From positions 246,688 to 310,687 of the forward strand of contig WGNA01000011.1 of the NCBI GenBank assembly GCA_016124755.1: 64,000 nucleotides of DNA, in the 5' to 3' direction. Below the pieces are notes generated by a model. The model was not told the origin of the DNA, made no database searches, and saw only the letters and a list, made by a program, of their open reading frames with translations. Every line of letters begins with the position of its first letter. The first letter of the stretch is position 1. Positions 23,481 through 40,475 of the stretch are shown one piece after another. Origin of the DNA: Bacteroidota bacterium. GTDB taxonomy: Bacteria; Bacteroidota; Bacteroidia; NS11-12g; UBA9320. The position numbers and the translations under genes were made by a program.

Positions 23481-23993
23481 TTGGACCAATTGGAAATAAA
23501 TAAAACGCAAACCGAACTCTGGAAACGAATTCAGGACTTCGATCCGGATGATCCGGATTCGGAATTTTCCTTTTCCGATCGGCTTTGTCGGGAAAACGAC
23601 TGGAAATTAGAATTTGCCATTCGGGCGATTGATGAATATAAAAAATTCATGTTTCTTATTTGTTTGGGTGAAGGGCCATTAACTCCATCCGATGAAATTG
23701 ATCAGGTCTGGCACCTGCATTTGCTTTATACCGAATCGTACTGGAACGAGTGGTGCCGGAATACGTTGGGCAGAGAAATACATCACGGCCCAACAACCGG
23801 TGGAACGGAATCACGGGAGAACTACACGAATCTTTATAATAAAACACTCGATTTGTATGAAAATGTTTTTAAAACAAAACCGCCGTCAGACATCTGGCCG
23901 CCCGACGAAAAACGATTCAGGGATATACATTTTACCCGAGTAAATCGACACAAATACTGGTTAATTCCTAAATTATTCCGGCGAAAGCAATGA
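23481..23993 (+). CDS. Hypothetical protein, possibly DUF1399/GRDP-like.
   Basis: Motif EIDQVWHLHLLYTESYW. The ATGA overlap with the next gene indicates translational coupling. The family assignment comes from memory only. Confidence 0.35.
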   Translation: MDQLEINKTQTELWKRIQDFDPDDPDSEFSFSDRLCRENDWKLEFAIRAIDEYKKFMFLICLGEGPLTPSDEIDQVWHLHLLYTESYWNEWCRNTLGREIHHGPTTGGTESRENYTNLYNKTLDLYENVFKTKPPSDIWPPDEKRFRDIHFTRVNRHKYWLIPKLFRRKQ

Positions 23994-24811
23994 ACATGAA
24001 TATTTCGAAATCCGATTATTTGCTGGCAGATTATCTTCCTGCCGAAGTTCTCATTTTAATACAAGAAGATGATTTTAAACTCGGCGAATTGCTACGATAT
24101 ACCCTGCTCGATTTACATCTGAAAAAGGTTCTTCTGATTAAGCCGAAATACAAAACCAGCAGGGGAAAAACCAGAACCTATTTGTATGTGCATTCCGGTC
24201 CGGCAATTGAAAATTACAGCTATCTGCCGCACGAAGGTATTTTTATTAAACCCTTTCGCATCAACCGGATTAAAATACAGGTGAAGCAATTGGCAAAAAT
24301 TGTTCGGCGGGATTCGGGAGGTCCGTTGAGTTATGTAAAAAGAATGCTCTGGAAAAGTGAAAAATTATCCAATTGTTTTGTGCGCAATCCTTTGACCTGG
24401 TTTGTAGGAAAGGTTAAACTGAAACCCAATGGGAAATTAATTGCAGACCGGCTTTCTGCAGAATTGGATGAATTAAACAATATAATTCCGGAATTACTGG
24501 AAACAGATCCACAGTCTGCTGCCATGATTTTAAGATCAATTGGTTCAAACATGTATCTGCTTTCGAATGTGGATTGGAGCAAGGTTCAGGAACTCAAAGA
24601 ATATTTTAAGCCAGAAGAGTTTCAAGATTTTACGGCTGCTGCCGGTTGTGGTGGATGCGCTATTTTCACTGATGTGGGTTCAGATGTTTTTAGTCATGGT
24701 GATTTCGGCGGATTTGATGCCGGCGGGGATTTTGGTTGTGGTTCGTCTTGCAGTGGCTGCAGCGGCTGTGGAGGATGCGGTGGTTGTGGAGGATGTGGTG
24801 GTTGCAGTTAA
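23990..24811 (+). CDS. Soluble protein ending in a Gly/Cys-rich low-complexity tail: ...GCGSSCSGCSGCGGCGGCGGCGGCS.
   Basis: The ORF is translationally coupled to the upstream gene. The C-terminal (GCGG)n repeat is encoded by a ggatgtggtggttgtgg repeat at 24720-24808. Confidence 0.45.
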   Translation: MNMNISKSDYLLADYLPAEVLILIQEDDFKLGELLRYTLLDLHLKKVLLIKPKYKTSRGKTRTYLYVHSGPAIENYSYLPHEGIFIKPFRINRIKIQVKQLAKIVRRDSGGPLSYVKRMLWKSEKLSNCFVRNPLTWFVGKVKLKPNGKLIADRLSAELDELNNIIPELLETDPQSAAMILRSIGSNMYLLSNVDWSKVQELKEYFKPEEFQDFTAAAGCGGCAIFTDVGSDVFSHGDFGGFDAGGDFGCGSSCSGCSGCGGCGGCGGCGGCS

Positions 24812-24884
24812 AAGCATTTTAATAAGAGTCGGATTTTTATCCGTGCTTTTTCAGTAAACCTTATCTTGCACCCAAACAAAACGC

Positions 24885-26054
24885 ATGAAATATTTTAAAG
24901 GAGAATATCTTTTTGATGGCCGGGAATTTAAGAAAGATGCAGTCTTAGTGACAGAGGACGATGGTACTACCGTTTCGATATTAAACACAAATGATTGTGC
25001 GGATGAAAATATTCAATCGTATAATGGAATCATCTGTCCGGGCTTTATTAATACGCATTGCCATTTGGAGCTGAGTCACATGCGGGGAATGCTCAAAGAA
25101 AAAACCGGACTCATTGAATTTATAAAAGGGGTTCTATCGAAAAGAGAAGCATCGGCAGAAGTAATTTCTCAGGCGATTGAAGATTGCGATCGGGAAATGT
25201 ATGAAAACGGAATTGTGGCGGTTGGCGATATTTCAAATACGACCGATACATTTCCGCAAAAGGCTAAAAGTTTAATTCATTATCACACCTTTATTGAGGT
25301 ATTTGATCTGGATCCCGAAAAAGCCGGAACTATGATTCAACAAGGAAAACAGAATGCCGGTGAGCTTAACAAACTCAGACTTTCGCATTCCATTGTACCG
25401 CACGCTCCTTATACGGTTTCGCCTGAATTATTTGCATTAATTAATGAATTTAACGACGAGAGAAAATCGCTTTCATCGATGCATAATCAGGAGACTCCGC
25501 AAGAAAACGAATTTTTTATTTCCGGAACCGGTGCGTTTGCCGATTTCTATCGCGACTGGGGAATGGACATTTCTTTTTTTCAGCCAACCGGAGAAAAATC
25601 GCTGCCTTCGGTAATTCCGCACATGAGTAGTAAAGGCAAAACCCTTTTGGTGCACAACACCTTTTCTCAGATCGACGACATCGAAATGGCAACGGATCAT
25701 TTTGATGAAGTTTTTTTGTGTACGAATCCGAATGCGAATTTGTATATCGAAGACCGTTTGCCGAAATACGAGAACTTTCTGGAGACAGATGCGATCGTTA
25801 CATTGGGAACCGACAGCATTGCTTCCAACTGGCAACTTTCGATTTTAGAAGAAATAAAAACCATCGACAAATATTTTCCGGAGATTGGTTTGCAAACATT
25901 GCTAACGTGGGCTACGTCGAACGGCGCAAGGGCTTTGGAAATAGATGATTGGGCCGGAAGTTTCGAACCGGGAAAAAAGCCGGGAGTTCTGTTGATCGGA
26001 AATGTTGATGATCTTAAAACTAATAAATCCACATTCGTTAAACGTCTTTTATGA
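24885..26054 (+). CDS. Metal-dependent amidohydrolase of the deaminase/chlorohydrolase-like superfamily.
   Basis: HxH motif INTHCHLELSHM, later His and Asp ligands (LVHNT, GTDS), and a TIM-barrel-typical length. Confidence 0.7.
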   Translation: MKYFKGEYLFDGREFKKDAVLVTEDDGTTVSILNTNDCADENIQSYNGIICPGFINTHCHLELSHMRGMLKEKTGLIEFIKGVLSKREASAEVISQAIEDCDREMYENGIVAVGDISNTTDTFPQKAKSLIHYHTFIEVFDLDPEKAGTMIQQGKQNAGELNKLRLSHSIVPHAPYTVSPELFALINEFNDERKSLSSMHNQETPQENEFFISGTGAFADFYRDWGMDISFFQPTGEKSLPSVIPHMSSKGKTLLVHNTFSQIDDIEMATDHFDEVFLCTNPNANLYIEDRLPKYENFLETDAIVTLGTDSIASNWQLSILEEIKTIDKYFPEIGLQTLLTWATSNGARALEIDDWAGSFEPGKKPGVLLIGNVDDLKTNKSTFVKRLL

Positions 26055-27487
26055 TTAATTCGGAATACGGAATTCAGGTCAAAAAAATATTTACTATTCA
26101 TCTGATTTTCTGTCTGGCTTTGGTTGGGGTAAATTTATTATTAGAATACACAGGACTAATATTTACCGAGGTTGATGGGGAGCTGAGGATCAATAGATTC
26201 GTACAGCAAATAATAGCGTTTGTGACCTACGCTATACTTTGGATTTCCCTGTTGATTACCGGAGATAAGAAGGTGAAAATTGGGTCGATGGTGGCATTGG
26301 TGTTATCTCTACTCAGTGTGGCTTTTCGCTATTCGTTACCTATTCAGAAAATGATTCCGGAAGGTGCAAGAATGTTTATCGGCATTGCCATGTTTTTATC
26401 TGTTTTTGTGGTGTTCGGATTTTTAGTATTCGGCAAAAAAGGTTTGGGGATGATTGTTCCGGCATTTATTATTTACGGATTGGTTAATCTCACATTTTAT
26501 TTCAAACCCCTTTATCGATGGATATCGGATTCCATGAATATGGATGAAAGTTGGTTTTCTTTTTTAATTATAAAATTTTATCAAACTGAGAATTCCTGGC
26601 GCGAGGTGGATATTCTGGAAATCGTTTTTGATTCGGGATTGAGTTTGCTGATTCTTTTTGTATTTGTGTCGTTTTATCTGGCGCTGCGATCCGGAAATAG
26701 TGTGCTAAAGGAATATGTATGGCCGAGGGTTCCGTTTGTTCAAAATAGGTTTCGGTGGTCGGTTTGGTTTCTTATGAGCCGTATGCTTATCGGCACTATG
26801 ATGTTGGGTATTTTATTCCGGAAACTCATGCCGGATTCTTCGTATTCTTTTGAAATGGTTCAGCCGCATAAAACCTTTTTCGATTATTTTTTAATTGCAA
26901 CCATGTTTTTTGCGCTGATCTTTTATGCATTTTATTTTCGAAACGGAGTGACTTTATTCCACGTAAGAAATAGAAGAACTCCCGGTGTTTTGTACTTTTT
27001 TCTGTATCTGCCTTTTGTACATATTATCGCCTGGATTATTTCCCTTTTCTTAAAGAAGAAAGAACGCGGTGAGGCAGAATCAATAGAGTCTTGGCTTGAT
27101 TTGCAGCAACGGACGTATGAAACATCGAACCGCAATTTATGGTTTAAATTTCTGTTGGTTTTGGCCGGAATAATAAACGTTGTTCGCTTTATGTTCTCGG
27201 ATGAAAGCGGAACTAATTTCCTGATCGGACTTTCATTAATGATTATAAATTTCGTATTAATATTAGTCTATATTCAATACGAAAAAATCATGTGGTGGAT
27301 CGTGGGAAGTCAGGTTCTTATTTATTTTGTTGCGTTCGCCTTACCCGATTTTCAGGTTGCGTGGATTCCGTCTGTTGCGATTCTGAATTCAATAATTATG
27401 TACCCACTGCTGCATTTTGATAAAATGAAATTGGGTGATACAGAGGTGGAAGAATCTGAATCAGAAGTTGTGATGGAAGAAGGGTGA
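26051..27487 (+). CDS. Polytopic membrane protein with at least 10 TM helices. Function unknown.
   Basis: ATGA overlap with the amidohydrolase gene. Highly hydrophobic throughout. Confidence 0.5.
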   Translation: MINSEYGIQVKKIFTIHLIFCLALVGVNLLLEYTGLIFTEVDGELRINRFVQQIIAFVTYAILWISLLITGDKKVKIGSMVALVLSLLSVAFRYSLPIQKMIPEGARMFIGIAMFLSVFVVFGFLVFGKKGLGMIVPAFIIYGLVNLTFYFKPLYRWISDSMNMDESWFSFLIIKFYQTENSWREVDILEIVFDSGLSLLILFVFVSFYLALRSGNSVLKEYVWPRVPFVQNRFRWSVWFLMSRMLIGTMMLGILFRKLMPDSSYSFEMVQPHKTFFDYFLIATMFFALIFYAFYFRNGVTLFHVRNRRTPGVLYFFLYLPFVHIIAWIISLFLKKKERGEAESIESWLDLQQRTYETSNRNLWFKFLLVLAGIINVVRFMFSDESGTNFLIGLSLMIINFVLILVYIQYEKIMWWIVGSQVLIYFVAFALPDFQVAWIPSVAILNSIIMYPLLHFDKMKLGDTEVEESESEVVMEEG

Positions 27488-29073
27488 AGCACGTATCTGC
27501 TCAATTCTTACATTTGCCCGCTTTTGTCGTATTACCCATGAAGCCGCACAAATCATTTCGACCCTGTTGCCTTTTAATCGCAACCTTTTTATTACTAATG
27601 TCTAATTCCGGAAATGTGAAAGCACAAATGTTGCTCGACACCGGAAACATTTTTAATGATGTAACTTCTATAATTAATGCAATGCCCGGAATTGGCGGTG
27701 ATGATTTTCACATGCCGACCGAACGACAACAGGAAATCTGGGAAAACACATTAGAAACCTTTTTCGATGGTAATTTTAATGATGCTGCCGATTCTGCCGA
27801 TCTAATTGATTATACTCTTACACAGTATTACGATAATTCTGTGAGCCCGAATGCAACGTATTATTTATTCCAGAATACAGGTACAAATTACTGGGGAACG
27901 TATATCTGTAATTTCGATTATTGTCGGCCGTTGGTGGTTCAGGCGCCGCATCCCAAATTTGATTTTAACACCGGAAAACAGGCGCTACATGTATTTCGGG
28001 AAGTAGAGGCATTTTTTTATTGTATGGCCGGAACGCACCGCTGTAATCAGTCGATTTACAGCACGTGCGACGGAACAACAGATGTGTGCGGAGCTGATGA
28101 GGATTTTCGTATTTCGGATATGGCGCATAAAGACAGTACCTTGTTTCATCTGGCAACGAGATCGATATATAACCGGTATTCGGGAAGTTATTTTTTGCAA
28201 TTGCACGGTTTCACAAAAGGCGCTTCCGACCCGTATGTAATTCTCAGTAACGGAACCCGCGACACACCGACATTAGATTATATAGAAACACTGGTTGATG
28301 AATTATATATTGAAGATACGGTGCTCACTTTTAAAGTTGTGCATTGGGATCAGAATTGGGATAAACAGGCCGGCTTGGTTAATACGCAGGGAAGAATGAT
28401 CAACGGAAGTTCGGATCCGTGCGACCAGAATCCGTCATCTGCAAGTGGTCGTTTCATTCACATGGAGCAGGAGAAGACAAGATTGCGGGCCGATATCTCG
28501 GGCTGGACAATTGTGGCCAATGCGGTGGCAAGTACGTTTCCGTGTGACGCACTTCCGGTTCAATGGCTGGGAGTTGATATAAAAGGAGACGAACATCAGC
28601 GTGAATTAATTTGGCAAACTGCCTCCGAACACAATTCTGATTATTTCGAAATTCAATATTCTAATGATGGAAAAAATTGGATTAAATCAGATCGAATAAT
28701 GGCAGCGGGTAATTCCGAATCCGTCCGTGAATATGTTTTTACGGATTTGCGGTTTGCGAATTCGGTAGTTTATTACCGGATAAAACAAGTTGATTTTAAC
28801 GGAGAGTTCATCTGGTCGGGATATGTGATGTTTAATCCGGGAAATAAAATTATTTCTATTTATCCGAATCCGGCAAAGAATGAAATTCAGGTTTCGGGTA
28901 AAATATCGGGAAATGAAAAATGGGTAATCCGGAATATTTCGGGTCAGGAGGAAATGAGCGGGGAATTAAATTCCGGAAGTGTAATTAATATTTCTCAGAT
29001 TAAACCGGGATTTTATTGGTTGGAAGTGGTGGATGGGTACAGATCAACAGTTCAAAAGATAGTTATTAATTAA
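27484..29073 (+). CDS. Secreted protein with a T9SS type A C-terminal sorting domain. The likely start is ATG at 27538, which gives a signal peptide.
   Basis: The C-terminus IYPNPAKNEIQVSGK...GFYWLEVVDGYRSTVQKIVIN matches the Por secretion tail pattern. Confidence 0.65.
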   Translation: MKHVSAQFLHLPAFVVLPMKPHKSFRPCCLLIATFLLLMSNSGNVKAQMLLDTGNIFNDVTSIINAMPGIGGDDFHMPTERQQEIWENTLETFFDGNFNDAADSADLIDYTLTQYYDNSVSPNATYYLFQNTGTNYWGTYICNFDYCRPLVVQAPHPKFDFNTGKQALHVFREVEAFFYCMAGTHRCNQSIYSTCDGTTDVCGADEDFRISDMAHKDSTLFHLATRSIYNRYSGSYFLQLHGFTKGASDPYVILSNGTRDTPTLDYIETLVDELYIEDTVLTFKVVHWDQNWDKQAGLVNTQGRMINGSSDPCDQNPSSASGRFIHMEQEKTRLRADISGWTIVANAVASTFPCDALPVQWLGVDIKGDEHQRELIWQTASEHNSDYFEIQYSNDGKNWIKSDRIMAAGNSESVREYVFTDLRFANSVVYYRIKQVDFNGEFIWSGYVMFNPGNKIISIYPNPAKNEIQVSGKISGNEKWVIRNISGQEEMSGELNSGSVINISQIKPGFYWLEVVDGYRSTVQKIVIN

Positions 29074-29515
29074 TCCTGTTATTTCCGGAAGTAACATTAT
29101 CCTTAATCCACATTTTACAATAATGCCGGATTTCATTTCTCACCTTTCTGAATTTTTCCGGTTTTAATTCGGGGTTACCGGAGTATTTGGAAGGGTCGCG
29201 AAAATTGTGATGGAAATTTTCGGTTCCGGGTAAGTACGGACAAACTTCCCGGGCATTATCACAGACGGTAATTACATAATCGAATTGGATGTTTTTGTAT
29301 TCATCGATCACATTGGAAGTATGGTGTGAAATGTCGATTCCGTCTTCCAGCATGGTTTGAACCGCATCCGGATTTAATCCGTGAGCTTCGATTCCGGCGC
29401 TGAAAACTTCAACCCGGTCTTTTCCGAAAAATCGGAGATAGGCTTCCGCCATCTGGCTGCGGCAACTGTTGCCGGTGCACAGAACTAATATTTTCTTCAT
29501 AAGCAGTTCAGACAA
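29066..29515 (-). CDS. arsC: Arsenate reductase ArsC of the LMW-PTPase family (thioredoxin-coupled).
   Basis: CTGNSCRSQMAE P-loop near the N-terminus. It lies in a cluster with arsR. Confidence 0.8.
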   Translation of the reverse strand: MSELLMKKILVLCTGNSCRSQMAEAYLRFFGKDRVEVFSAGIEAHGLNPDAVQTMLEDGIDISHHTSNVIDEYKNIQFDYVITVCDNAREVCPYLPGTENFHHNFRDPSKYSGNPELKPEKFRKVRNEIRHYCKMWIKDNVTSGNNRIN

Positions 29516-29637
29516 AAAGCCAGATAATATTGATGATGCAGAATTTGGGATCGAACCCCCAGATTAATTGCAGAATCAACAATGAAGTGGTAATAATGAT
29601 GGCTTTTTTGTACCGATTAAAAAAATGTGTAAGTATT

Positions 29638-30129
29638 TCAACAGCAGACTTCATTGGGAGAGCAGCAAGTTGTTTTGGGTGTAAGGTCTGAGAGTTTTAA
29701 TTTTTGTTTTTCAGCAGGAATTCCGCATTTGTCTTTTGCCGGGCAATCCGTAAAAAGATTCAGCAGATTAAATTGATCATTAGTAAAAGCAACACCGAAT
29801 CGACCGATAGTACCGGATTGATATTCAAATTCAACCTCCGGATCTGAGTCTCCGAAAATTTCGTCGGCCTTTTTAATTATTTCTAAAAGTTTGGAAGGTT
29901 TAAGACGATGGTCGGTGTCACCGGCAACCCAAATTTGAAATATAATGGATTGTGTTTTTTTAACCGTTCCTCCACAATCAATCACATGTTTGGAAACCAG
30001 TCCGGCTTCGGTGATGTGAAAATGAGCGGGAACCAAAGACGAGTCGGGGAGAACAAATGTTAATTCGTTCAGGTGGCTCAGATGATTTTTAAATTTAGAT
30101 AGCAGCATTTTAATTTGAATTAGCAGCAA
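29638..30129 (-). CDS. ars-cluster hypothetical protein with a Cys-rich C-terminus (TTCCSPNEVCC), possibly DUF6428-like.
   Basis: Overlaps the arsR stop. Position between arsR and arsC. A Cys cluster sits at the C-terminus. Confidence 0.45.
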   Translation of the reverse strand: MLLIQIKMLLSKFKNHLSHLNELTFVLPDSSLVPAHFHITEAGLVSKHVIDCGGTVKKTQSIIFQIWVAGDTDHRLKPSKLLEIIKKADEIFGDSDPEVEFEYQSGTIGRFGVAFTNDQFNLLNLFTDCPAKDKCGIPAEKQKLKLSDLTPKTTCCSPNEVCC

Positions 30130-30452
30130 TTATTTTTTAGACATTCGGCATGACTTGCAACGCCGGAAAGAAATTTCAGAAGGTCATCAACGGCTCCCTG
30201 ATTTATACAATAGTTAATGGCATTGCCTTCAATATTGCCTTTAATAAAACCGGCCAGTTTCAACTCCTTGAGGTGTTGTGAAACGGTGGGTTGAGCCAGC
30301 GGCAATTCGTTAACAATGTCGCCGCAAACACAGGCGTTGGTTTTCATCAGATATTCCAGAATGGCAATGCGGGCAGGATGTGCAAGCGCTTTGGCCAGAC
30401 CCGAAATCTGATTGTGTTTTTCTGAAAAATGTTCCGCTTTTGAAAGTCCCAT
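30120..30452 (-). CDS. arsR: ArsR/SmtB-family metalloregulator.
   Basis: HTH region PARIAILEYL...CVCGDIVNEL...VSQHLKELK. The CVC motif lies at the As(III)-sensing position. Confidence 0.8.
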   Translation of the reverse strand: MGLSKAEHFSEKHNQISGLAKALAHPARIAILEYLMKTNACVCGDIVNELPLAQPTVSQHLKELKLAGFIKGNIEGNAINYCINQGAVDDLLKFLSGVASHAECLKNNCC

Positions 30453-30614
30453 TTATATTTCTATATCGCAATATTACGATAAAGCGATGAATCGAAAACG
30501 GAGCTGAATTTTTTTTTAGTGAAAAGTAAGTCAGGATTCCAACCCCAAAGAATATCCATCCGTCAGCATTGTGGATGTCGTAAAACTTTAGTTCAACAAC
30601 CTTAGATCAAAAAA

Positions 30615-30965
30615 ATGAAGAAGCTTTTCAAAAACATGTTCGCCAGTTGTATCATTTGCGCAATTCAGTCATTTTCTCCAACAGCAGAAAACGGTGTTGA
30701 TGCAACGTACGGCGTTTCTCCCGGAGACCCGTCACACATTTCACTGGAACTGCACAGCAATTACACCTTTGTTTTTAAAGATTACTCACTTCCCAACCAC
30801 AAGACGAAAGTTAACGGAACCTATACTCTGCAGAATAACCGGTTACATTTAACAGCGGAGAACTCAAATGAAAAATTCAGAGATGATTGGAAAATTGTAA
30901 ATAACGGCAATGCAGTTTCCTCCAGTTTCCGACTATCTTTTTACAGGCTCTGCAAGTTGGATTAA
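30615..30965 (+). CDS. Small secreted hypothetical protein.
   Basis: N-terminal signal-like sequence only. Confidence 0.3.
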   Translation: MKKLFKNMFASCIICAIQSFSPTAENGVDATYGVSPGDPSHISLELHSNYTFVFKDYSLPNHKTKVNGTYTLQNNRLHLTAENSNEKFRDDWKIVNNGNAVSSSFRLSFYRLCKLD

Positions 30966-31069
30966 GAGAATTGCATTTGGGCAGATTCATCTTCTCACAT
31001 TCATTCTTATCGAAACCTTAACCTGTTCTAAAACGCACATGACCTTATTTTCGTGACCAAAATTGCGTT

Positions 31070-32443
31070 TTGCAGGAATTAAAAAGCCAGATTCAACAAT
31101 TCACTTCGCCGGTTACTTTCGAATCACTCCGGTCGTTTATTACAGAACTTACACTTGAAAACCTCCGTTTCAATGAACACATTCCGGAACCGGAAGCTGC
31201 CGGGGATTACGGAAGAAATATTATAACACTTGAACCTTTTGAATGCGTTCTTATTCATTGGCCGGCCGGGGTTTCAAGCGCAATTCATTTACACGAGGGA
31301 CTTTTTGGTTATGTCTGGGTTCTGGAAGGAGAACTCGACAATGTCTTTTATAAATTTCAGGATGGTAAACTCATCGAATATTCCGTAGCCCGATATGGCA
31401 AAAACGGATTGATTCCGGAACCCGACGGAGTGATTCACAAACTCGCCAATAACACAAACACGCGCGCGATAACACTGCATTTTTATTACCCGGCGATTGA
31501 AAGTTTCGAGGGGATGCAGTTGTTCAATGTAGAAAAGCGAGCCATTGGTAGTCTGAGTGATAATGCCAATACCGCCAGTTGGCAGGATGAGGACGGACAT
31601 TTTTCAGAAGTAAAAACCAATGCATTCGACTTCGTTCCGTTTGATGTGCATCACCAACCCAAAACCCACGTAATGATTCCGGTTATTCCGAAACCGACAT
31701 CGGAAAGAATCCGGGAAATGAACGACGAATACTTTAGTGAGCAGGCACACAAATACGACTTTTCGGATTTCAACCAGCCCCGTAGAAAAGCTTATATCGA
31801 TGGCATTGACCGGGAAATTGCCCGTTTGCTTCAGGAGTCGGAACCCATAAAAAAAGTAATGGATATCGCAGTGGGTACTGGAAGACGTGCTCTTCACATA
31901 CGGGAAATCAGCGAACTCAATTATTCCATAACCGGGGTCGACATCAGTGAAGAGATGTGTGCCATTGCGGGTGAACGGGGCATTAGGGCAATTCACCACG
32001 ACTGGGTAAATGCTGAAATTCCGGATGAAAAGGACTTCGATGCCGTAACGTTCTTATACGCATTCGGACATATTGCCGACATAGAATCGAGAGAGCGTGC
32101 ATTGCGAAAAGTTCATCAGGTTTTAAAACCGGGCGGGATGATTTTCTTTGATGTCTTTAGTCTGAACAACCAAAACGAATGGGGACCTCAGGCTTCAAAG
32201 GCATTTGACCAACGCAATCTCGGGGAAAACGGATTCGACCGGGGCGATGTGTTCTATAAAAAAACGGAATTCAACAGCATCGCTTTTCTACATTATTTCA
32301 CCCATGAAGAAATTGAAGAATTACTCCATAAAACCGGATTTGTAGAGATAGAAATCCGTTCGATTGGTTATGCGAAAAATCCGGGACAGTGGGTGGATAG
32401 TGATAATGAGGGGAACTTTTTTGTGGCGGCGAGGAAGGTTTGA
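31070..32443 (+). CDS. Fusion protein with an N-terminal cupin domain and a C-terminal class I SAM-dependent methyltransferase (TTG start).
   Basis: Cupin-like HWPAGVSSAIHLHEGLFGYVWVLEGE. Methyltransferase motif I VMDIAVGTGRRAL and post-I VDISEEM...LKPGGMIFFDVF. Confidence 0.6.
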   Translation: MQELKSQIQQFTSPVTFESLRSFITELTLENLRFNEHIPEPEAAGDYGRNIITLEPFECVLIHWPAGVSSAIHLHEGLFGYVWVLEGELDNVFYKFQDGKLIEYSVARYGKNGLIPEPDGVIHKLANNTNTRAITLHFYYPAIESFEGMQLFNVEKRAIGSLSDNANTASWQDEDGHFSEVKTNAFDFVPFDVHHQPKTHVMIPVIPKPTSERIREMNDEYFSEQAHKYDFSDFNQPRRKAYIDGIDREIARLLQESEPIKKVMDIAVGTGRRALHIREISELNYSITGVDISEEMCAIAGERGIRAIHHDWVNAEIPDEKDFDAVTFLYAFGHIADIESRERALRKVHQVLKPGGMIFFDVFSLNNQNEWGPQASKAFDQRNLGENGFDRGDVFYKKTEFNSIAFLHYFTHEEIEELLHKTGFVEIEIRSIGYAKNPGQWVDSDNEGNFFVAARKV

Positions 32444-32454
32444 AGAGGAGGAGG

Positions 32455-32650
32455 GAGCGGTAGCGGTAACTGCAACGGTAACTGCAACGGTAACTGCAAC
32501 GGTAACCGTAACGGTAACAAGAGAAGGAGAGCGAAAGAGCTGGAGACAGGAGAGCGATCAAAATTCTGAGCCAGCGGAGAATCCCGATTTTCCCCAAAAA
32601 AAGACCGTCATTCCGAGCGAAGCGAAGATACCCAAACAGTAACGGGAACG
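32455..32650 (+). repeat. Third copy of the ~185-bp composite element: (GTAACTGCAACG)n hexamers, a purine tract, the AATTCTGAGCCAGCGGAGAATCCC hairpin and GTCATTCCGAGCGAAGCGAAGA.
   Basis: Aligns module-by-module with 17010-17200 (reverse complement) and 16812-16960. Confidence 0.7.
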
Positions 32651-32741
32651 GAAGAGCGGAAGAAAACGGAGAACGAATGCTAAGAGCGATGAAAAAGAAG
32701 GATTTCTGGCGGTTGGTTAATTTGGAATGGATCCTCGGTTT

Positions 32742-33003
32742 GTTCGGGGAAAGGGCTTAAGCCCTTCTTCGTGCGCAAGTACGATTGTTTACCAGACCAA
32801 GAGCAACAAAATCTGTCATTTGAAAATTACCGCTTAAAAATTCTAACTCAACGCAGTCAACTTGGGTATCGACAGATTGGAAAACCATCAACCTAAAAGA
32901 CGCTGAAGGATTTTGGTAGTTGTCGCTGGTGAAACGGATTGATAGGAAAATAACCCGAAAATGTTTTGGGGAATCAGGCATAGAAAGGGCTTAAGCCCTT
33001 CTC
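32742..33003. repeat. Two copies of a perfect 16-bp palindrome AAGGGCTTAAGCCCTT (32746-32761 and 32985-33000) flanking 223 bp inside a ~700-bp ORF-free region.
   Basis: Read directly from the sequence. Both copies share the flank GAAAGGGCTTAAGCCCTTCT. Confidence 0.6.
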
Positions 33004-33142
33004 ATAGCGCGCCCGTGAATCTAACCCGGTCCTCCCAAATCCACCATCAGCGAAACCTCAAATTATTCCCAAAGTTGGTTCTGCGTTACCCAACGCCATT
33101 CACAAAAAAATCCCGGCATTCTCGAGAAAGACCAAATCTTAA

Positions 33143-33448
33143 TTAACACATATTGGCCTCTTTTATCTCAGAATGATCTACCCTCTTGGGGCTAATAAAT
33201 ATATATGGGGTAGAACCCTTTCGAGGAAGGATTTCAACCTTGATTTCATCAAAAATGATCCTCGATATATTACCGGTTGAAATTGAGTTGATAAAAGAAT
33301 CAAGATTAGAATTTGAACATTGTAAAGGGGGAAGATTAAAGGTGTCGTCGATGTAGATTACTGTTCGAAATGATAGCACCCTGACAGAGAGAATGAATGC
33401 ACCTATCCTAACCAGATAACCTTTATCCACATTTCGCCTTAGCCGCAC
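33143..33448 (-). CDS. Doubtful small ORF downstream of lipB.
   Basis: ORF only. No motif recognised. Confidence 0.2.
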   Translation of the reverse strand: MRLRRNVDKGYLVRIGAFILSVRVLSFRTVIYIDDTFNLPPLQCSNSNLDSFINSISTGNISRIIFDEIKVEILPRKGSTPYIFISPKRVDHSEIKEANMC

Positions 33449-33453
33449 GCAGT

Positions 33454-34113
33454 TTATACCGATATCTTTTCTGTATTAAAAATCTTTTCAAATTGCTTTA
33501 CATACTCGGCAGCAACTTCACTTACCGGAATTTTTCTTCCAAGTTCTTTGGATATGGATGTCACACCTTTATCGGTAATACCACACGGAACTATGTGATT
33601 AAAATACGATAGATCGGTTGAAACATTTAAAGCAAATCCGTGCATCGTAACCCATCGGCTCACTTTTATTCCGATGGCAGCAATTTTTCTGGGTGCGCCT
33701 TCAATCAGCCAGATCCCGGTTAGTCCTTCGATGCGTTGTGTTTTTATTCCGTAAGTCAGGAGGGTTTGGATAAGGCTTTCTTCCAGCAAATCAACATAAG
33801 TTCGAATGCCCATCTTCCGATCGTTCAGATTTAAAATCGGATACCCAACTAATTGACCCGGTCCGTGAAATGTTATATCGCCACCCCGTTCAATCTGAAA
33901 TACCTCTGCACCGATATTTTTCAGGAAAACCGGATTAACTAATAAATTATTCGCATCTGCACTTTTGCCTAAGGTATAAACCGGCTCGTGTTCGCATATA
34001 AGGAGTTGGTCCGCAATCGCACCTTCAATCCGTTTTTGAAGGAGTTCTTTCTGTAAATCCCAGGCATTGCCATACCGGATCAAACCGAGGTGCTGAATTT
34101 CAAATTCTGTCAT
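33454..34113 (-). CDS. lipB: Octanoyl-[ACP]:protein N-octanoyltransferase LipB.
   Basis: Motifs ICEHEPVYTLGK, RGGDITFHGPGQLVGYP and the KIAAIGIK lysine. Confidence 0.9.
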   Translation of the reverse strand: MTEFEIQHLGLIRYGNAWDLQKELLQKRIEGAIADQLLICEHEPVYTLGKSADANNLLVNPVFLKNIGAEVFQIERGGDITFHGPGQLVGYPILNLNDRKMGIRTYVDLLEESLIQTLLTYGIKTQRIEGLTGIWLIEGAPRKIAAIGIKVSRWVTMHGFALNVSTDLSYFNHIVPCGITDKGVTSISKELGRKIPVSEVAAEYVKQFEKIFNTEKISV

Positions 34114-35665
34114 TTACAATCCTTTTAACAATCAGACTCAACAACAAAAACACGGAAATAAAGATTGCAATCCGGCCGATATAATCTCCGTGTGTGGCAT
34201 AAAAGGTTAGCCCGCTGAATTCCGGAACATCGTATGAAAACGCCTTGGGTTCCCACCATTCTGTATGCGTGATGATTTCACCGGTGTTATTTATCACACA
34301 AGAAATTCCTGTGTTTGCTGCCCGAACAACCGACCGCCTGTTTTCAATTGCCCGCAATCTTCCGTAATGCAAATGCTGCCGGTAACCGGGTGTGTTTCCC
34401 CACCAACCATCGTTCGTAATCACTAAAATCGTCCCGGCACCTTTTCGCACAAACGAACCCACATATTCTCCGAAAATACTTTCGTAACAAATCGTAGTTG
34501 CCATGCTCGAATCCAGAATTTTGGATTCTTTATCACTACCCAAACTGCCGGAAATTCCTCCCATATCAATGGCCAGCGGTGCTAAAATTTTGAAAAATCC
34601 GGGATAAGGCATCATCTCAACACCGGGAACCAGTCGTGATTTGTGATACGCTTGTTCAACACCATTTTCATTAATAAATAAAGCGGTGTTATACGAATCG
34701 TAATACTGATTAGTGGGTTCGTAATGACGTGCGGTAACACTCAGTTCTTCGCCCGAAGAATAGAATTTATACGTGGAAGCTCCAGTGATTATTTTTAACC
34801 CGGAATGCCGTTCACATAATTCTCTCAGCATCCTGATGGACGTATAGCTATTCCAGTTGCTTTCGTCAAGATTTTCAACAATTGCCGTTTCCGGGAGAAC
34901 CACGTACTCAGTTGTAGAATCGATTTGTTGTTCGGCAAGCGAGATAAAAATCTTCATTTGATTCATCTCCTCACCCGAATTGAATTTGTTGTACGGATCG
35001 ATATTCGGCTGAACAACTACGATTTTATGGGATAAATAAGATTCTCGTAGTTCCTGGCGAATTAGCAATAAATGGGATATGCCAATCGGTAATAAAAGGA
35101 GCCCGGCTAAACGGTAAGCGGTTCCGGTGTTGTGATTAACAACCCAATAAAACAGCAGCACGTTAGCCAGTAAAATCCAGAGACTCCCGCCTAAAACTCC
35201 GGTGTATTCGTACCATTGAATAATGGAGGTACTGGTAGCAAATGAATTTCCGAGAACCAACCAGGGATACGCCAGATCCCAGCGATAATGCAGGAATTCG
35301 TAACCGAGCCAGTATAGAATAAATGCGACTAATGCTCTTTCCAATCCCAGAATCTGACGGGTGAAGCGATAAAACATGAAAGGAAAAGTCATGATCAGAC
35401 TGTTCGCTATCAGCATAAATACAGCACCTCCGGGAGATGCGTTCCACACCCACCAGGTAGTGGTTAGATTAAAAAGAAACAAAGACAGATACAGATACCG
35501 GAAGTAAACACCGGTTTTTCCTTTATCCTGTAATAGCTGATCCAATCCTAATAAAGGGGCAAATGCAACAAACATCAGATACGGCATCTGATGCGGAGGC
35601 CACGCCAGAAATAATAGAAGTGGCGATAACAAAGTGAGAATCCAGAGAGCCGTTTTTTTATTCAT
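34100..35665 (-). CDS. lnt: Apolipoprotein N-acyltransferase Lnt.
   Basis: N-terminal polytopic region plus a C-terminal CN-hydrolase domain (E...K...ICYESIF Cys). Length 521 aa. Confidence 0.8.
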   Translation of the reverse strand: MNKKTALWILTLLSPLLLFLAWPPHQMPYLMFVAFAPLLGLDQLLQDKGKTGVYFRYLYLSLFLFNLTTTWWVWNASPGGAVFMLIANSLIMTFPFMFYRFTRQILGLERALVAFILYWLGYEFLHYRWDLAYPWLVLGNSFATSTSIIQWYEYTGVLGGSLWILLANVLLFYWVVNHNTGTAYRLAGLLLLPIGISHLLLIRQELRESYLSHKIVVVQPNIDPYNKFNSGEEMNQMKIFISLAEQQIDSTTEYVVLPETAIVENLDESNWNSYTSIRMLRELCERHSGLKIITGASTYKFYSSGEELSVTARHYEPTNQYYDSYNTALFINENGVEQAYHKSRLVPGVEMMPYPGFFKILAPLAIDMGGISGSLGSDKESKILDSSMATTICYESIFGEYVGSFVRKGAGTILVITNDGWWGNTPGYRQHLHYGRLRAIENRRSVVRAANTGISCVINNTGEIITHTEWWEPKAFSYDVPEFSGLTFYATHGDYIGRIAIFISVFLLLSLIVKRIVNDRI

Positions 35666-36356
35666 AAATGCTCGCGTTTACACCGCCGATTATTACCACA
35701 AACTCCCCCTTTGCAACTCCGTTTTCTAATTGAATCGCTACTTCTGTGGCGGATCCCCGATAATACGTTTCGTGAATTTTACTGATCTCTCTTGCCACTA
35801 CAATTTGCCGTTGATCTCCGAAATGTTCCGCCAGTTCTTCGAGCAACCGGAAAATTCTGTGCGGACTTTCATATAGCACAACGGTTCGTTCTTCCTCTTT
35901 TAGTGCTAATAATCTTTTTTGTCTTCCTTTTTTATGCGGAAGAAATCCTTCGTAAACAAATCGGTCGCAGGGCAATCCGGATGCGACAAGAGCCGGAACG
36001 AAAGCAGTAGCACCCGGTAGGCATTCCACCTTAATGTTGAGACGAACACATTCCCGGATAAGCAGATATCCCGGATCCGAAATTCCCGGAGTTCCGGCAT
36101 CACTGCAATAACTAATGGTTTTCCCGGATTGAATTTCCTGAATTACGGCCGGAACTTTTCGGTGTTCATTATTCTGATGGAGCGAATCTACCGGCGCGTG
36201 TATTTCAAAATGACTCATCAGTTTGCGCACATTACGACTGTCTTCGGCTAAAATCAGATCTGAATTTTTCATCACTTCAATTGCCCGGAAAGTCATGTCG
36301 CCGAGATTTCCGATGGGAGTCGGAACCAGGATTAGTTTGCCCGTAGTTGAAATCAT
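35658..36356 (-). CDS. rsmI: 16S rRNA (cytidine1402-2'-O)-methyltransferase RsmI.
   Basis: KLILVPTPIGNLGDMT...ILAEDSR signature of the tetrapyrrole-methylase fold. Confidence 0.9.
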   Translation of the reverse strand: MISTTGKLILVPTPIGNLGDMTFRAIEVMKNSDLILAEDSRNVRKLMSHFEIHAPVDSLHQNNEHRKVPAVIQEIQSGKTISYCSDAGTPGISDPGYLLIRECVRLNIKVECLPGATAFVPALVASGLPCDRFVYEGFLPHKKGRQKRLLALKEEERTVVLYESPHRIFRLLEELAEHFGDQRQIVVAREISKIHETYYRGSATEVAIQLENGVAKGEFVVIIGGVNASIYE

Positions 36357-36487
36357 TTAACCGCTGCGAATTTACTTCACAATCGTATGGAACATGAATC
36401 GGTAATTTCTTTAGAAAGGTTAATCTGTTCGAAACAGGTTAACAATGAAAACAACTTTGAGCTAATAATTTTGCGCATCAATTCCGC

Positions 36488-37264
36488 ATGATGAAGAGGA
36501 TAAAATATCTGAAAAAATTTCTGGCAATTCCGCTGGTAGTCTTGTTTATGCACAGTTTCACCACCGACAATGGATTTCGCGACAGTCAGTTGAAAAATCA
36601 ACGAGTTCAGATGGCTTTTAAAGAGAAGTTGGTGGATGTGAATACGATGTTGGGTTTGAAAGGCATTGATCAAACGAACTTTGAAATATACATCCGTGCT
36701 TTTAAAATGGAGCAAGTTGTGGAAGTTTGGGGAAGAACCCGGGGTGCAAATACATGGTGCAATGTGGTTAATTATAATTTCTGTAGTACGGTAGGACAAT
36801 TAGGCCCGAAAAGGAAAGAAGGAGATTATCAGATTCCGGAAGGCTTTTACACCGTGTCGGAATTCAATCCGAATAGCGATTTTCTGCTATCACTAAAACT
36901 CAATTACCCGAACAAATCAGACAGTATTCTCGGTGTTAAAGGAAAACTCGGAGACCTTATATATATACACGGAGGATGCATGACTATCGGTTGCATCCCG
37001 ATCACCGACGATAAAATTGAGGAGTTGTATGTTCTGTCGGTTATTGCTAAAGATCAGGGCCAGAATCAAATTCCGATTCATATTTTTCCGGCACGTCTTA
37101 ATTATGGCAATTACAATATGCTCGCGAAACAAACCACGAACAAATCGAATGTTCGGTTTTGGGGAAACCTTCGTACATGCTATACCTACTTTGAGGAAAA
37201 CGGTATTCTGCCGGAAATTTCAGTGAACGAAAAAGGTGACTATGTTTATAAACGAAGTGAATAG
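36488..37264 (+). CDS. L,D-transpeptidase-family periplasmic protein (YafK-like).
   Basis: Signal peptide. Catalytic-like motif IHGGCMTIGCIP (His...Cys). Confidence 0.5.
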   Translation: MMKRIKYLKKFLAIPLVVLFMHSFTTDNGFRDSQLKNQRVQMAFKEKLVDVNTMLGLKGIDQTNFEIYIRAFKMEQVVEVWGRTRGANTWCNVVNYNFCSTVGQLGPKRKEGDYQIPEGFYTVSEFNPNSDFLLSLKLNYPNKSDSILGVKGKLGDLIYIHGGCMTIGCIPITDDKIEELYVLSVIAKDQGQNQIPIHIFPARLNYGNYNMLAKQTTNKSNVRFWGNLRTCYTYFEENGILPEISVNEKGDYVYKRSE

Positions 37265-37441
37265 AAAGGAGTTTCAACACATTTTACTCTTTTGTTTTAA
37301 AGGTGATTTAAATTCTGGGAACTGTAGAGTTCGAAATCACTTCGGATCGGCCAGGAACAGATTTCAACCGAATTTTAATTTTCACAACCGCTCCTTAATA
37401 TCATAAGTTCTATTTTCGCTGAGCTTTTTTAAAGAACCAAA

Positions 37442-38587
37442 TTGATGAATTTCGAACAGACCGAAAATCAAAAAATGATCGCCGATATGGTGGCGGATTT
37501 TGCAGCCCGACACATCAAACCTAAGATGATGGAATGGGACGAATCGCAACACTTTCCGGTAGAAGTTTTTAAAGAACTGGGTAAGCAAGGCTTAATGGGA
37601 GTTTTGGTTCCGCATGAATACGGCGGGTCAGGATTTGGTTATCTTGAATACATGACGGCCATTGTGGAGCTTTCAAAAGTTTGCGGAAGCATCGGCTTGT
37701 CGATGGCCGCTCACAATTCTCTTTGCACCGGGCATATTCTGCAATTTGGCAACGAAGCCCAAAAGCAGAAATACCTGCCCAAACTGGCAACCGGAGAATT
37801 TATCGGAGCGTGGGGATTAACAGAAACCGGAACCGGATCGGATGCCGGCGGAATGAATACAACGGCTGTTAAAGACGGTGATTATTGGGTGATCAACGGT
37901 TCCAAGAATTTTATTACACATGCCATTTCTGGAGATGTTGCTGTTGTAATCGTTAGAACTGGCGAAAAGGGAGATTCACATGGAATGACGGCCTTTATTG
38001 TAGAAAGAGAAACACCGGGTTTCAGTGGAGGCAAAAAAGAAAACAAACTTGGAATGCGGGCTTCAGAAACCGCTTGTTTGTTCTTTGATAATTGTCGTAT
38101 TCATCAGGATCAGATGCTCGGTAAGGAAGGTGAAGGATTCATTCAGGCAATGAAAGTTTTGGATGGCGGGCGAATTAGCATTGCTTCTCTTGCTTTAGGA
38201 ATTGCAAAAGGGGCCTATGAAGCTGCTTTGGCGTATTCCAAAGAACGCGAACAATTCGGAAAGCCGATTTCTGAATTTCAGGCTATTGCTTTCAAACTTG
38301 CCGATATGGCGACAAAAATCGAATGTGCCGAACTGTTGACTTCTCAGGCAGCAGTTATGAAGAACGAAGGAAAACCGATGACCAAAGAGTCTGCGATGGC
38401 CAAGTATTATGCTTCAGAAATTGCGGTTCAGATTGGTAATGACGCAGTTCAGGTTTTCGGAGGATACGGATACACTAAAGACTATCCGGCGGAGAAGTTT
38501 TATCGGGATGCCAAGCTTTGTACCATTGGTGAAGGAACTTCTGAAATCCAGAAATTGGTAATCAGTCGGCAGATCTTAAAAGGCTGA
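37442..38587 (+). CDS. Acyl-CoA dehydrogenase, short/branched-chain type.
   Basis: Full ACAD architecture with the C-terminal catalytic Glu ([10 protein letters not shown]) and a FAD-binding region. Length 381 aa. Confidence 0.9.
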
Positions 38588-38674
38588 TTGAGAAATTCTT
38601 TTTGGGTCGCTTGAATTTTAGTTCAATAATTAGATATTTGCAGCCCTTTTAAACGACCAGTCATTTTTGTACTT

Positions 38675-38860
38675 ATGTTAGTAGTAAACGTTAAAGAAAA
38701 CGAATCTGTTGAAAAGGCGCTCAAGCGCTTCAAAAAGAAATTTGAAAAAACCGGTGTTCTCCGTGAATTGAGAGAGCGTCAGCAGTTTACCAAACCTTCT
38801 GTAAAACGCAGAATGGAGAAAATTAAAGCTGCTTACAAAGAGCAACAACAAAACGGTTGA
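38675..38860 (+). CDS. rpsU: 30S ribosomal protein S21.
   Basis: LKRFKKKFEKTGVLRELRERQQF...RR, the Bacteroidota-type S21. Length 61 aa. Confidence 0.85.
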   Translation: MLVVNVKENESVEKALKRFKKKFEKTGVLRELRERQQFTKPSVKRRMEKIKAAYKEQQQNG

Positions 38861-39006
38861 TCACAGATCGGCCTGTATTCTTCTTTCCTTTTAGAAATCT
38901 TTGGTGCTGCTTCCAGTTGGTCGTTGACTAAGTTGCACGCATTTTTATTCTATTAATTTTATTCCTTCTAATCCTTTTTTAACTTGCGGTTGTTAAGTTC
39001 ATAATC

Positions 39007-39897
39007 TTGAACCAACTGTTGGTTAAATATCTGAATTACCTGACGTTTCAGAGAAATCTGTCGCACCATACAATTGATGCGTATCGCTCAGACCTCCAGC
39101 AGTTCTGTGCTTTTCACAGCCTTGAAACAGACGATTCGATATTAAATGTAAAGTACAATGATGTACGGAGTTGGGTTGCGAGTCTGGCAAAAAGCAAAAT
39201 GGCACCAACTAGCATCAATCGGAAAATCAGTGCCGTAAAGCGCTTTTATAAGTACCTGAAAAAGTTGGATTTGGTTTCTGTGAATCCGGCAGATAGCGTC
39301 GGAAATCTGAAGAAGCCAAGAAGGTTGCCTCAATACGTGAAGCAATACGAAATGGATCGTTTAATCGATTCACATAAACCTGTAAATACCGGGGAAACCG
39401 AGTATACAGAAATCCTGGAGTTTACTGCTCTAATGCTCTTATATCAGGCAGGTTTGCGAAGATCAGAACTAATAAATCTGCTGGATGTTAATGTTGATAC
39501 GATTCAAAAAACCGTAAAGGTTATGGGAAAAGGGAGTAAGGAGAGAATCGTTCCGTTGACCGAAGAAATGAATGAACTTCTCAATAATTACAGGAATTCC
39601 CGTAATACTCTTGGAGATTTCCATGACAACTTTTTTATATTTGAGAACGGTAAGCCACTTTATGAGAAATGGGTTTACCGGCTGGTCAAAAAGTCATTGA
39701 GTGAAGTATCTACTGTCGCGAAGAAAAGCCCACACGTGTTGAGACATTCCTTTGCCACTCATCTGTTACAGAGAGGGGCAGATATTAATGCCATCAAGGA
39801 ATTACTCGGGCACTCGAGTTTGGCGGCTACCCAGATTTACGCGCACAACGACATTGAGCAGTTGAAGAAAATACATAAGTTACATCCTAATTCTTAG
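39007..39897 (+). CDS. Tyrosine site-specific recombinase, XerC/XerD family.
   Basis: C-terminal RHSFATHLL...LGHSSLAATQIYAH with the catalytic Tyr. Conserved position after rpsU. Confidence 0.85.
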   Translation: MNQLLVKYLNYLTFQRNLSHHTIDAYRSDLQQFCAFHSLETDDSILNVKYNDVRSWVASLAKSKMAPTSINRKISAVKRFYKYLKKLDLVSVNPADSVGNLKKPRRLPQYVKQYEMDRLIDSHKPVNTGETEYTEILEFTALMLLYQAGLRRSELINLLDVNVDTIQKTVKVMGKGSKERIVPLTEEMNELLNNYRNSRNTLGDFHDNFFIFENGKPLYEKWVYRLVKKSLSEVSTVAKKSPHVLRHSFATHLLQRGADINAIKELLGHSSLAATQIYAHNDIEQLKKIHKLHPNS

Positions 39898-39901
39898 ACC
39901 A

Positions 39902-40204
39902 ATGAAAGTACAAATTCAATCCATTCACTTCAAAGCTGATCAAAAACTCAAAGATTATATCGCGCGAAAACTTTCCAAACTTGATCACTTATACGATGCT
40001 ATTATTGACTCACAGGTTTTTCTCAAACTTGAAAACAATCATCAGAAAATCAACAAGACAATAGAAGTGAAATTGAATGTACAGAATCAAAGTATTTTCA
40101 AGACACAAACCTCTCAAAGTTTTGAAGCTGCAACCGATTTAGCAGTAGATGCTCTCAAAATTCAAATCACTAAGTATAAAGAGCGTCTGAAACTACCTGC
40201 CTGA
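39902..40204 (+). CDS. hpf: Ribosome hibernation promoting factor / RaiA (short form).
   Basis: Sequence MKVQIQSIHFKADQKLKDYI...KLNVQNQSIFKT. Length 100 aa. Conserved synteny with xerC-like and tuf. Confidence 0.85.
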   Translation: MKVQIQSIHFKADQKLKDYIARKLSKLDHLYDAIIDSQVFLKLENNHQKINKTIEVKLNVQNQSIFKTQTSQSFEAATDLAVDALKIQITKYKERLKLPA

Positions 40205-40402
40205 GGACACAAGTTGAAACTTTTTACATCGCAAAACATCAGTAAAATCGGGCATTCCGACGTTTCAAACTCTTCCCAAATATTTTTATCCAATTTTTGA
40301 TTGCGATTCAAAAAAAATGTACTTTTGCCAACCCTAAAAAATCGTGGGAGGTTATTAGGGTTCGTTAGAAGTCTTAGGATTTCTGTGAAATTGGATAAAA
40401 TT

Positions 40403-40475
40403 GCCACCTTAGCTCAGCTGGTAGAGCAGCTGATTTGTAATCAGCCGGTCGTTGGTTCGAGTCCGACAGGTGGCT
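40403..40475 (+). tRNA. tRNA-Thr (anticodon TGT).
   Basis: Cloverleaf read by hand. Acceptor GCCACCT/AGGTGGC and anticodon loop tTGTaa. Confidence 0.85.

Follow-up and report, generated by a model that had tools for sequence, protein, structure and literature searches.

The DNA analyzed here is a 64,000-nt stretch of the metagenome-assembled genome of an uncultured Bacteroidota bacterium (contig WGNA01000011.1 of assembly GCA_016124755.1), which we call the window. Two genes converge in it on a spacer without coding signal: a cupin-methyltransferase gene, whose stop codon is at 32441-32443, and lipB, whose stop codon is at 33454-33456. Inside this spacer, 12 nt past the methyltransferase stop codon, begins a composite repeat of about 190 nt. 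It is the third copy of this repeat in the window and stands alone (copy C); the other two (copies A and B) lie together at 17 kb. All positions are collected in Table 1. An earlier note on this DNA had placed a third copy at 32455-32650 with the same module order as the 17-kb locus, and blastn and alignments agree with both the coordinates and the order. The same note described an ORF-free (open reading frame-free) stretch at 32444-33142 between the cupin-methyltransferase gene and the lipB operon. Its location was correct, but its extent was too short, since the stretch runs to 33453. The 16-bp palindrome that the note put next to the element is indeed duplicated, but its copies lie 100 nt and 334 nt downstream of the element.

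When the spacer was compared with the window by blastn, it matched 17195-17016 in copy B with 76% identity over 187 nt (E = 2e-35) and 16818-16949 in copy A with 72% identity over 135 nt (E = 2e-16). Three-way and pairwise alignments showed an identical module order in copies A, B, and C: a GTAACN tract, a purine-rich block, unit 1, a linker made of T, C, and A runs, unit 2, and a short hexamer run. Pattern searches gave the same picture. The patterns GTCATTCYGAGCGAAGCGAAGA and AATTCTNAGCNNGCGRAGAATCCC each had three matches in the window, all within the three copies, and GTAACNGTAACNGTAAC had 19 overlapping matches confined to them. The chance expectation for these patterns was 0.00-0.04.

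Table 1. The three copies of the composite repeat, the modules of copy C, and the other features of the spacer and its flanks (positions in the window).
Feature	Positions	Strand	Basis or remark
Copy A	16810-16960	+	First hexamer supplies the TAA stop of the MeaB gene (15809-16819)
Copy B	17000-17195	-	Inverted relative to A; CGTC tags outward, head-to-head dimer
Copy C	32455-32651	+	Solo copy
Copy C, leader	32444-32459
Copy C, hexanucleotide microsatellite GTAACN / GCAACG	32460-32518	+	TRF, period 6 x 10.2 and period 12 x 4.6; pattern search
Copy C, purine-rich block AAGAG..GAGAGCGAAAGAGC..GGAGAGCGATC	32519-32559	+	Alignment; kept in all three copies
Copy C, unit 1 AAAATTCTGAGCCAGCGGAGAATCCC	32560-32587	+	Pattern search, 3 matches vs 0 expected; alignment
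Copy C, linker TTTTCCCCAAAAAAAGAC (T4C4A7) between units 1 and 2	32588-32605	+	Alignment
Copy C, unit 2 CGTCATTCCGAGCGAAGCGAAGATAC, CGTC-tagged, best-conserved module	32606-32631	+	Pattern search; alignment
Copy C, short second hexamer run CAGTAACGGGAACGG	32632-32651	+	Alignment with copy B
Convergent spacer without coding signal	32444-33453	.	1,010 nt; absent from syntenic relative L123
Cysteine-dioxygenase-type cupin + class I methyltransferase gene	31070-32443	+	Pfam; homologues
lipB (octanoyl/lipoyl transferase), last gene of the TP_methylase-lnt-lipB operon	33454-34113	-	Pfam
16-bp perfect palindrome AAGGGCTTAAGCCCTT, first copy	32751-32766	.	Exact search
16-bp palindrome AAGGGCTTAAGCCCTT, second copy	32985-33000	.	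Within identical 20-mer 32983-33002

The two units differ in how they have been preserved. Across the three copies, unit 1 reads AAATTCTnAGCnnGCGrAGAATCCC. It retains the ATTCT/AGAAT arms and the C that follows them, lacks the 5' GTC tag (AAA stands in its place), and concentrates its differences at the apex, where two bases vary by copy (GT, TC, or CA). Unit 2 reads CGTCATTCyGAGCGAAGCGAAGAwAC; it is identical in copies A and B (26/26), and copy C agrees with them at 24/26 positions. Of all the modules this one, CGTCATTCYGAGCGAAGCGAAGA, is the best conserved. It derives, with slight decay, from a 25-mer, GTCATTCTGAGCGAAGCGAAGAATC, that we found in many other genomes. The damage to unit 2 is in its 3' arm, which has AGAAA or AGATA where the intact motif has AGAAT.

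At the 17-kb locus, copies A and B form a head-to-head dimer with tags at 16924 and 17061, and copy B ends 13 nt ahead of the ATG of a TPR gene (17208). Because they are two inverted copies, A and B together make a strong hairpin with arms of about 190 nt (folding z = -13.6). Pairwise identity is 75% for A and B, 72% for A and C, and 78% for B and C, so that B is nearer to C than to its own inverted partner. Since the copies are only 72-78% identical, all three are old. They also share the same defects in units 1 and 2, which suggests that the composite multiplied as a unit after these units had decayed. Upstream of copy A, MeaB extends 2-7 residues further at its C-terminus than it does in relatives. 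On the other side, TACCTTTG (17192-17199) marks the outer edge of copy B; it fits the Bacteroidota -7 promoter box TAnnTTTG and sits 8 nt before the ATG of the TPR gene. This edge might supply a promoter element to that gene.

The 25-mer behind unit 2 was examined across phyla. Its intact form is (C/T)GTC-ATTCT-GA-GC-GAA-GC-GA-AGAAT-C, in which a 5-bp stem (ATTCT/AGAAT) is followed by a GA/GA mismatch and a GC/GC pairing around a GAA loop. The 21-mer GTCATTCNGAGCGAAGCGAAG of unit 2 was present as an exact match in at least 120 genome loci from at least 14 phyla. Among the matches listed, these were Acidobacteriota, Bacteroidota, Nitrospirota, Nitrospinota, Chloroflexota, Planctomycetota, Verrucomicrobiota, Firmicutes, Cyanobacteria, Patescibacteria, Ignavibacteria, Desulfobacterota, Campylobacterota, and Proteobacteria. 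The 21-mer was also found in 43 viral contigs. The core motif is thus among the most widely and exactly conserved short non-coding sequences found in this analysis, and we found nothing on it in the literature, either as DNA or as its translations.

Motif statistics were calculated from 140 instances among the matches listed. The 21-mer continues as AATCT or AATCC in 114/140, and the base before GTC is T in 106/140 and C in 29/140. Only 36% of the instances lie in long stop-free stretches, compared to 86% of random positions, and most are intergenic. An inverted partner with its tags outside (head-to-head) was present in 49/140 instances (35%), at a median of 30 nt downstream, and a tail-to-tail partner in 7/140. 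When relaxed matches at the same loci were included, the outer stem of 5 bp was seen to covary, with ATTCT/AGAAT in 161, ATCCT/AGGAT in 27, ACCCT/AGGGT in 7, and others. Tandem repeats with a period of 6-7 directly adjoin the 25-mer in other phyla as well (L117, L015, L023, L047, L103, and L083). They include (GATTAGG)n, (GTGTTTC)n, and hexamers of Acidobacteria that have TTGCAGTT in common with the reverse-complemented tract of the window. Such repeats stand beside the motif in 9/140 instances against 1% of control windows, a rate set by construction of the threshold; the enrichment is modest.

The 25-mer is linked to small nuclease genes by tblastn, by the literature, and by a test of where the proteins end. 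It brackets small single-domain GIY-YIG genes in a viral contig (L162), in Gracilibacteria (L006), and at a third locus (L095). These genes were assigned to GIY-YIG by PF01541; the Ssn-type domain is cd10448. A stop codon falls inside the motif in 71 of the best 120 homologues, compared to 1/240 control proteins. Forty of these 120 end in ..RDSSLRSE*, as encoded by the reverse-complemented motif up to its TGA, and 31 end in ..RVSF*, as encoded by the forward GTGTCATTCTGA. Most of the genes are on contigs shorter than 2 kb, which would be expected if they are flanked by repeats. A crude GIY-YIG regular expression run on the motif loci picked up one gene only, and a search of the viral contigs for further GIY-YIG relatives returned only the known locus. 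From these gene contexts, the widely conserved 25-mer appears to belong with a large Ssn-like nuclease subfamily.

Such an arrangement has been described before. The Neisseria Transformation Sequence (NTS, CGTCATTCCCGCGMAVGCGGGAATCYRG), which includes dRS3, and similar motifs called Ssn-related motifs (SRMs) flank the gene of Ssn, a small GIY-YIG protein with a single domain (Chenal et al. 2025, PMC11893778). Ssn (SsnA) binds its motif solely when the DNA is single-stranded, and on one strand only, and cleaves it a few nucleotides upstream; mutagenesis of NTS showed that the three bases before the palindrome weigh most for cutting and the C after the palindrome for binding (PMC11893778). At these key positions, the 25-mer has the GTC tag, the palindrome, and the C, unit 2 keeps CGTC and the C, and unit 1 keeps the arms and the C. 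The 25-mer shares with NTS the same 5' eight bases (CGTCATTC), a GCG..GCG center, an AATC end, and a near-palindrome that starts with AT and has a C right after it. Both are directional, mostly intergenic, and often found as inverted pairs, and the 25-mer brackets GIY-YIG genes as in NTS-ssnA-NTS. The two differ in that the stem of the 25-mer is broken by the GA/GA mismatch and its loop is GAA. The units of the window differ further, as they are decayed and sit inside a larger composite that was copied whole, and there is no Ssn gene in the window. The SRM search pattern, HGTCWYN(0-2)YYVSBRHN(0-5)WNVSBRGN(0-2)RNCYNB, had 0 matches in the window and did match the NTS control. The 25-mer appears to work like an SRM and is a variant outside the published definitions. 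Since the published pattern misses this variant, surveys based on the pattern may undercount nuclease-motif pairs.

A second likeness is to the CGTC-tagged repetitive extragenic palindromes (REPs). Their hallmarks are an unpaired tag (CGTC or TGTC, also CCTC), a stem whose first bases are AT, and a short tail, and they are not known to have a transposase of their own (Di Nocera, De Gregorio and Rocco 2013, PMC3733652). Reported from five phyla, Bacteroidetes included, they are intergenic and mostly follow genes, predominantly as head-to-head dimers with a spacing of 20-100 bp; their families have perfect stems of 8-9 bp, loops of 4-5 nt, and tens to thousands of copies per genome (PMC3733652). 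In the window, unit 2 starts with CGTC in all three copies, and unit 1 has no tag. All copies are intergenic, A and C abut an upstream stop codon, and A and B are head-to-head.

The construction of the composite resembles that of mosaic repeats. Bacterial interspersed mosaic elements (BIMEs) of enterobacteria and Neisseria intergenic mosaic elements (NIMEs) combine REP-type units and short motifs in mosaics, and BIMEs are associated with binding of IHF, gyrase, and Pol I. Here, too, REP-type units and other motifs occur in a fixed order at several intergenic sites, often after genes. The other modules are different ones, and the composite is flanked by microsatellites, which to our knowledge is not a described feature of BIMEs. 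REPINs consist of two inverted GTAG-type REPs that form a hairpin and replicate as one unit, are lineage-specific, and occur with a single-copy REP-associated Y1 tyrosine transposase, RAYT, whose gene the same REPs flank (Bertels and Rainey 2011, PMC3116915). An inverted doublet of this shape is seen in the A/B pair and in 35% of the motif copies across phyla. They differ from REPINs in that the tag here is CGTC, the core is found across phyla, and the gene associated with it elsewhere is a GIY-YIG nuclease.

Copy C is probably a solo, old copy of a lineage-specific mosaic of the BIME/NIME kind, built from two tandem, partly decayed units related to CGTC-REPs and SRMs together with GTAACN microsatellites and a purine-rich block, and copied whole. 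It seems likely, to a similar degree, that this mosaic repeat acts, or once acted, at the level of DNA and is neither a gene nor a folded RNA. The composite belongs to a known kind of repeat, of which it is an old, local variant, and does not amount to a new system. It would have arisen once, after both units had decayed, and the whole would then have been copied to at least three gene-end positions of this genome. Copying could have been done by an enzyme that recognizes single-stranded DNA hairpins, either an Ssn-type nuclease followed by repair or a Y1 transposase, or by recombination. The flanks would have drifted later, with the core of unit 2 staying nearly invariant since a protein would still recognize it. 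Mobility is plausible but unproven. We infer the copying mechanism, any present binding or cutting, and any effect on the neighboring genes. Under this explanation, two unusually long gene-end spacers would be repeat-filled, lineage-specific DNA, not missed genes or RNAs.

Several observations weigh against this explanation. The SRM pattern fails on the 25-mer, on unit 2 of copies A, B, and C, and on unit 1 of copies A and C. The dimensions of a CGTC-REP are not reached either, as the stem here has 5 + 2 bp interrupted by a mismatch and the loop has 3 nt. A single unit folds into a weak hairpin (-1.9 kcal/mol, z = 0.2, nearest-neighbor model) compared to about -9 kcal/mol for NTS. The mutagenesis of NTS suggests that changes in the palindrome lower binding, so the decayed copies may be dead relics. 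Only three composite copies (six units) are present in the 64-kb window, which contains no GIY-YIG gene, and neither 185,579 species genomes nor the JGI metagenomes yielded a match to composite patterns spanning both units. Unit 1 alone also had no match in the JGI metagenomes. Finally, the relatives used for the empty-site comparison described below share only 56-60% protein identity.

That comparison bears on the proposal of the earlier note that the element inserts in intergenic space, which was to be checked by looking for an empty site in relatives. The nearest homologues in 5.8 billion proteins were 57% identical for the methyltransferase and 63% identical for MeaB. The sole relative that keeps the synteny of the copy C locus is L123, a Flavobacteriales metagenome-assembled genome with 56% protein identity. 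Its gene order is a Por_Secre_tail gene, the methyltransferase gene (plus strand), lipB (minus strand), lnt, TP_methylase, and, further on, acyl-CoA dehydrogenase, S21, and integrase genes. In L123 there is no spacer, and the methyltransferase gene and lipB overlap by 9 nt. In five other relatives, which have lost this synteny, the methyltransferase gene is overlapped or closely followed by the next called gene, with at most 78 nt between them. At the MeaB locus, two relatives (58-60% identity) keep the order LpxK-KsgA-MgtE-MeaB and have 22-37 nt after MeaB, compared to 388 nt here. The composite element was in none of the compared relatives' loci.

Thus, syntenic sites without the DNA, for which the note had suggested looking, exist for both loci, but in distant relatives. 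The outcome that it had set against mobility, an identical sequence in all orthologous loci with conserved synteny, was not found. The claim of a mobile insertion itself was not supported: the copies are old (72-78% identity), no recognizable target-site duplication is present, no transposase or nuclease gene was seen nearby, and the DNA that is extra compared to L123 is the whole 1,010-nt spacer, well beyond the 197-nt element. The note had also not recognized the core as a decayed form of a cross-phylum motif; the tie of that motif to a known nuclease family is the chief clue to the element's way of working. Because the divergence between these genomes is deep, the comparison points to lineage-specific extra DNA and not to a clean insertion event. 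Another difference from L123 lies on the other side of the methyltransferase gene. Between it and the Por_Secre_tail gene, the window has a block (29066-30965) of three minus-strand genes (a low-molecular-weight phosphatase/ArsC-like gene, DUF6428, and an ArsR-type HTH gene) and a 116-codon ORF. L123 lacks the block and has 48 nt there.

One alternative is that the repeat acts in cis as RNA, as a hairpin terminator or 3'-end stabilizer in the 3' untranslated region of the upstream gene. REP and BIME sequences of enterobacteria have been described in these roles, and copies A and C start at or just after an upstream stop codon in the same orientation as that gene. As RNA, the A/B pair would fold into a very stable hairpin, placed between two genes that run in the same direction. 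In both tag families, REPs are mostly downstream of genes and have been proposed as RNA stabilizers (PMC3733652). Beyond copy C and the first 16-bp palindrome, the plus strand also has a terminator-like hairpin (32769-32784) with a T-rich tail. This hairpin and a terminator-like site for lipB at 33127-33111 are both consensus matches at chance frequency, and sigma-70 and terminator scans were at chance level overall. Copy C alone did not fold better than shuffled sequences (z = -0.86), and none of 14 predicted pairs showed compensatory changes among the three copies. Rfam at the gathering threshold reported only five tRNAs in the window, and with E up to 10 nothing relevant was found in 32300-33500 or 16700-17300. 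Copy B is antisense to both of its neighboring genes, and RNA is not acted on by Ssn, the protein characterized as the partner of the related motif (PMC11893778). A role as RNA is therefore unlikely, about a one-in-five prospect in our judgment.

It is also rather unlikely, and somewhat more so, that the repeat is an active or recent miniature transposon of the REPIN or MITE type (MITEs are miniature transposable elements with inverted repeats), with A+B as the complete element with inverted arms of about 190 nt and C as a half. The A/B pair does form a near-perfect long hairpin, the copies lie in unrelated intergenic contexts, and syntenic relatives are without the DNA. Like MITEs such as the Correia elements, the repeat is small, non-coding, and gene-adjacent and has inverted arms. 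In contrast to MITEs, the arms are 75% alike, and C is a solo half copy. With B closer to C than to A, the arms do not look like a recent palindromic unit. No direct repeat flanks the A/B pair or copy C as a target-site duplication, and there is no terminal consensus: the ends are microsatellites. The spacer also holds no partner arm for copy C, as the best reverse-complement alignment scored below those of shuffled sequences. No Y1 or other transposase was found among the annotated genes of the 64-kb window, in which no search aimed at Y1 was made. The element was absent from all the collections searched, and thus there is no sign of recent spread.

A further explanation is that the composite is a non-autonomous partner of an Ssn-type GIY-YIG nuclease and that such pairs are mobile systems analogous to RAYT/REPIN. 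The nuclease would nick an exposed single strand upstream of the motif, and repair would then copy the mosaic to gene ends. Repeated cutting and slipped repair would have left the 6-7-nt microsatellites as scars, both in the window and at some loci of Acidobacteria, Nitrospirota, and Bacteroidota. We regard this as a speculative possibility with a low probability, lower than that of a recent transposon. Composites such as copy C could be test cases of whether nucleases of this kind spread their motifs.

A coding role, as a small repeat peptide or as a C-terminal extension of the upstream protein, is very improbable. A 92-codon ORF (32364-32642, plus strand) does run through copy C, and a truncated form of it was called at a contig end; copy A gives MeaB its stop codon and perhaps its last few codons. 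The ORF through copy C, however, runs over the end of the methyltransferase gene in a different frame, and the three copies are open in different frames with different ends. Codon-usage log-odds were zero or negative for all the spacer ORFs, compared to mostly +0.1 to +0.4 for real genes of the window, and none of these ORFs had a Pfam match. The independent gene caller of the public assembly made no call in 32643-33453.

Chance similarity or an assembly artefact is scarcely credible, given E-values down to 2e-35, the chance expectation of about zero for three motifs, and an independent assembly of the same sample that reproduces both flanks exactly, including modules 2-6, even if both of its contigs end in the hexamer tract and leave the junction not independently spanned. 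One of these contigs (L121) matches 21070-32493 of the window exactly and the other (L122) 32477-40439. They overlap by 17 nt (32477-32493) within the part of the tract that has a 12-nt period. The flanks and modules 2-6 of copy C are thus confirmed, and the number of hexamer repeats is the sole part of the copy that this assembly does not span. The tract breaks de Bruijn (short-read) assemblies.

The rest of the spacer was also searched. It gave no evidence of RNA structure (z = -1.2 and -1.7), and the spacer had no match to a Bacteroidota-type promoter pattern and none among plasmids or phages. The palindrome AAGGGCTTAAGCCCTT has exactly two occurrences in the window; both are in the spacer, each inside the identical 20-mer. 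Stretches of the GGGGAAA type (32739-32752 and 32964-32973) precede each palindrome and are weakly complementary to TTTCCCCAAAA of the linker. They may be remnants of inverted partner copies, with an alignment that is not significant. A degenerate tandem or inverted second copy downstream of copy C was considered and rejected, as the scores of 41 and 26 were within the range of shuffled sequences (31 +/- 4.4, maximum 49).

Other repeats were noted elsewhere in the window. Another convergent spacer (8177-8985, about 800 nt) is likewise filled with repeats, at 8372-8925. These are units of about 50 nt, in roughly 3.5 tandem copies plus dispersed ones, in each of which a CACCCCTTYGGGGT hairpin comes after a TTTTATAATAAT stretch. 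The segments 68-172 and 57759-57866 share 41 identical nt, followed by 68 nt with 82% identity, and both lie shortly upstream of a plus-strand ORF; the 41-nt stretch may be a common promoter or leader. A direct repeat of 285 nt with 73% identity (20323-20607 and 21603-21887) is due to a pair of neighboring minus-strand paralogs that encode thioredoxin-fold (AhpC-TSA/Redoxin) proteins.

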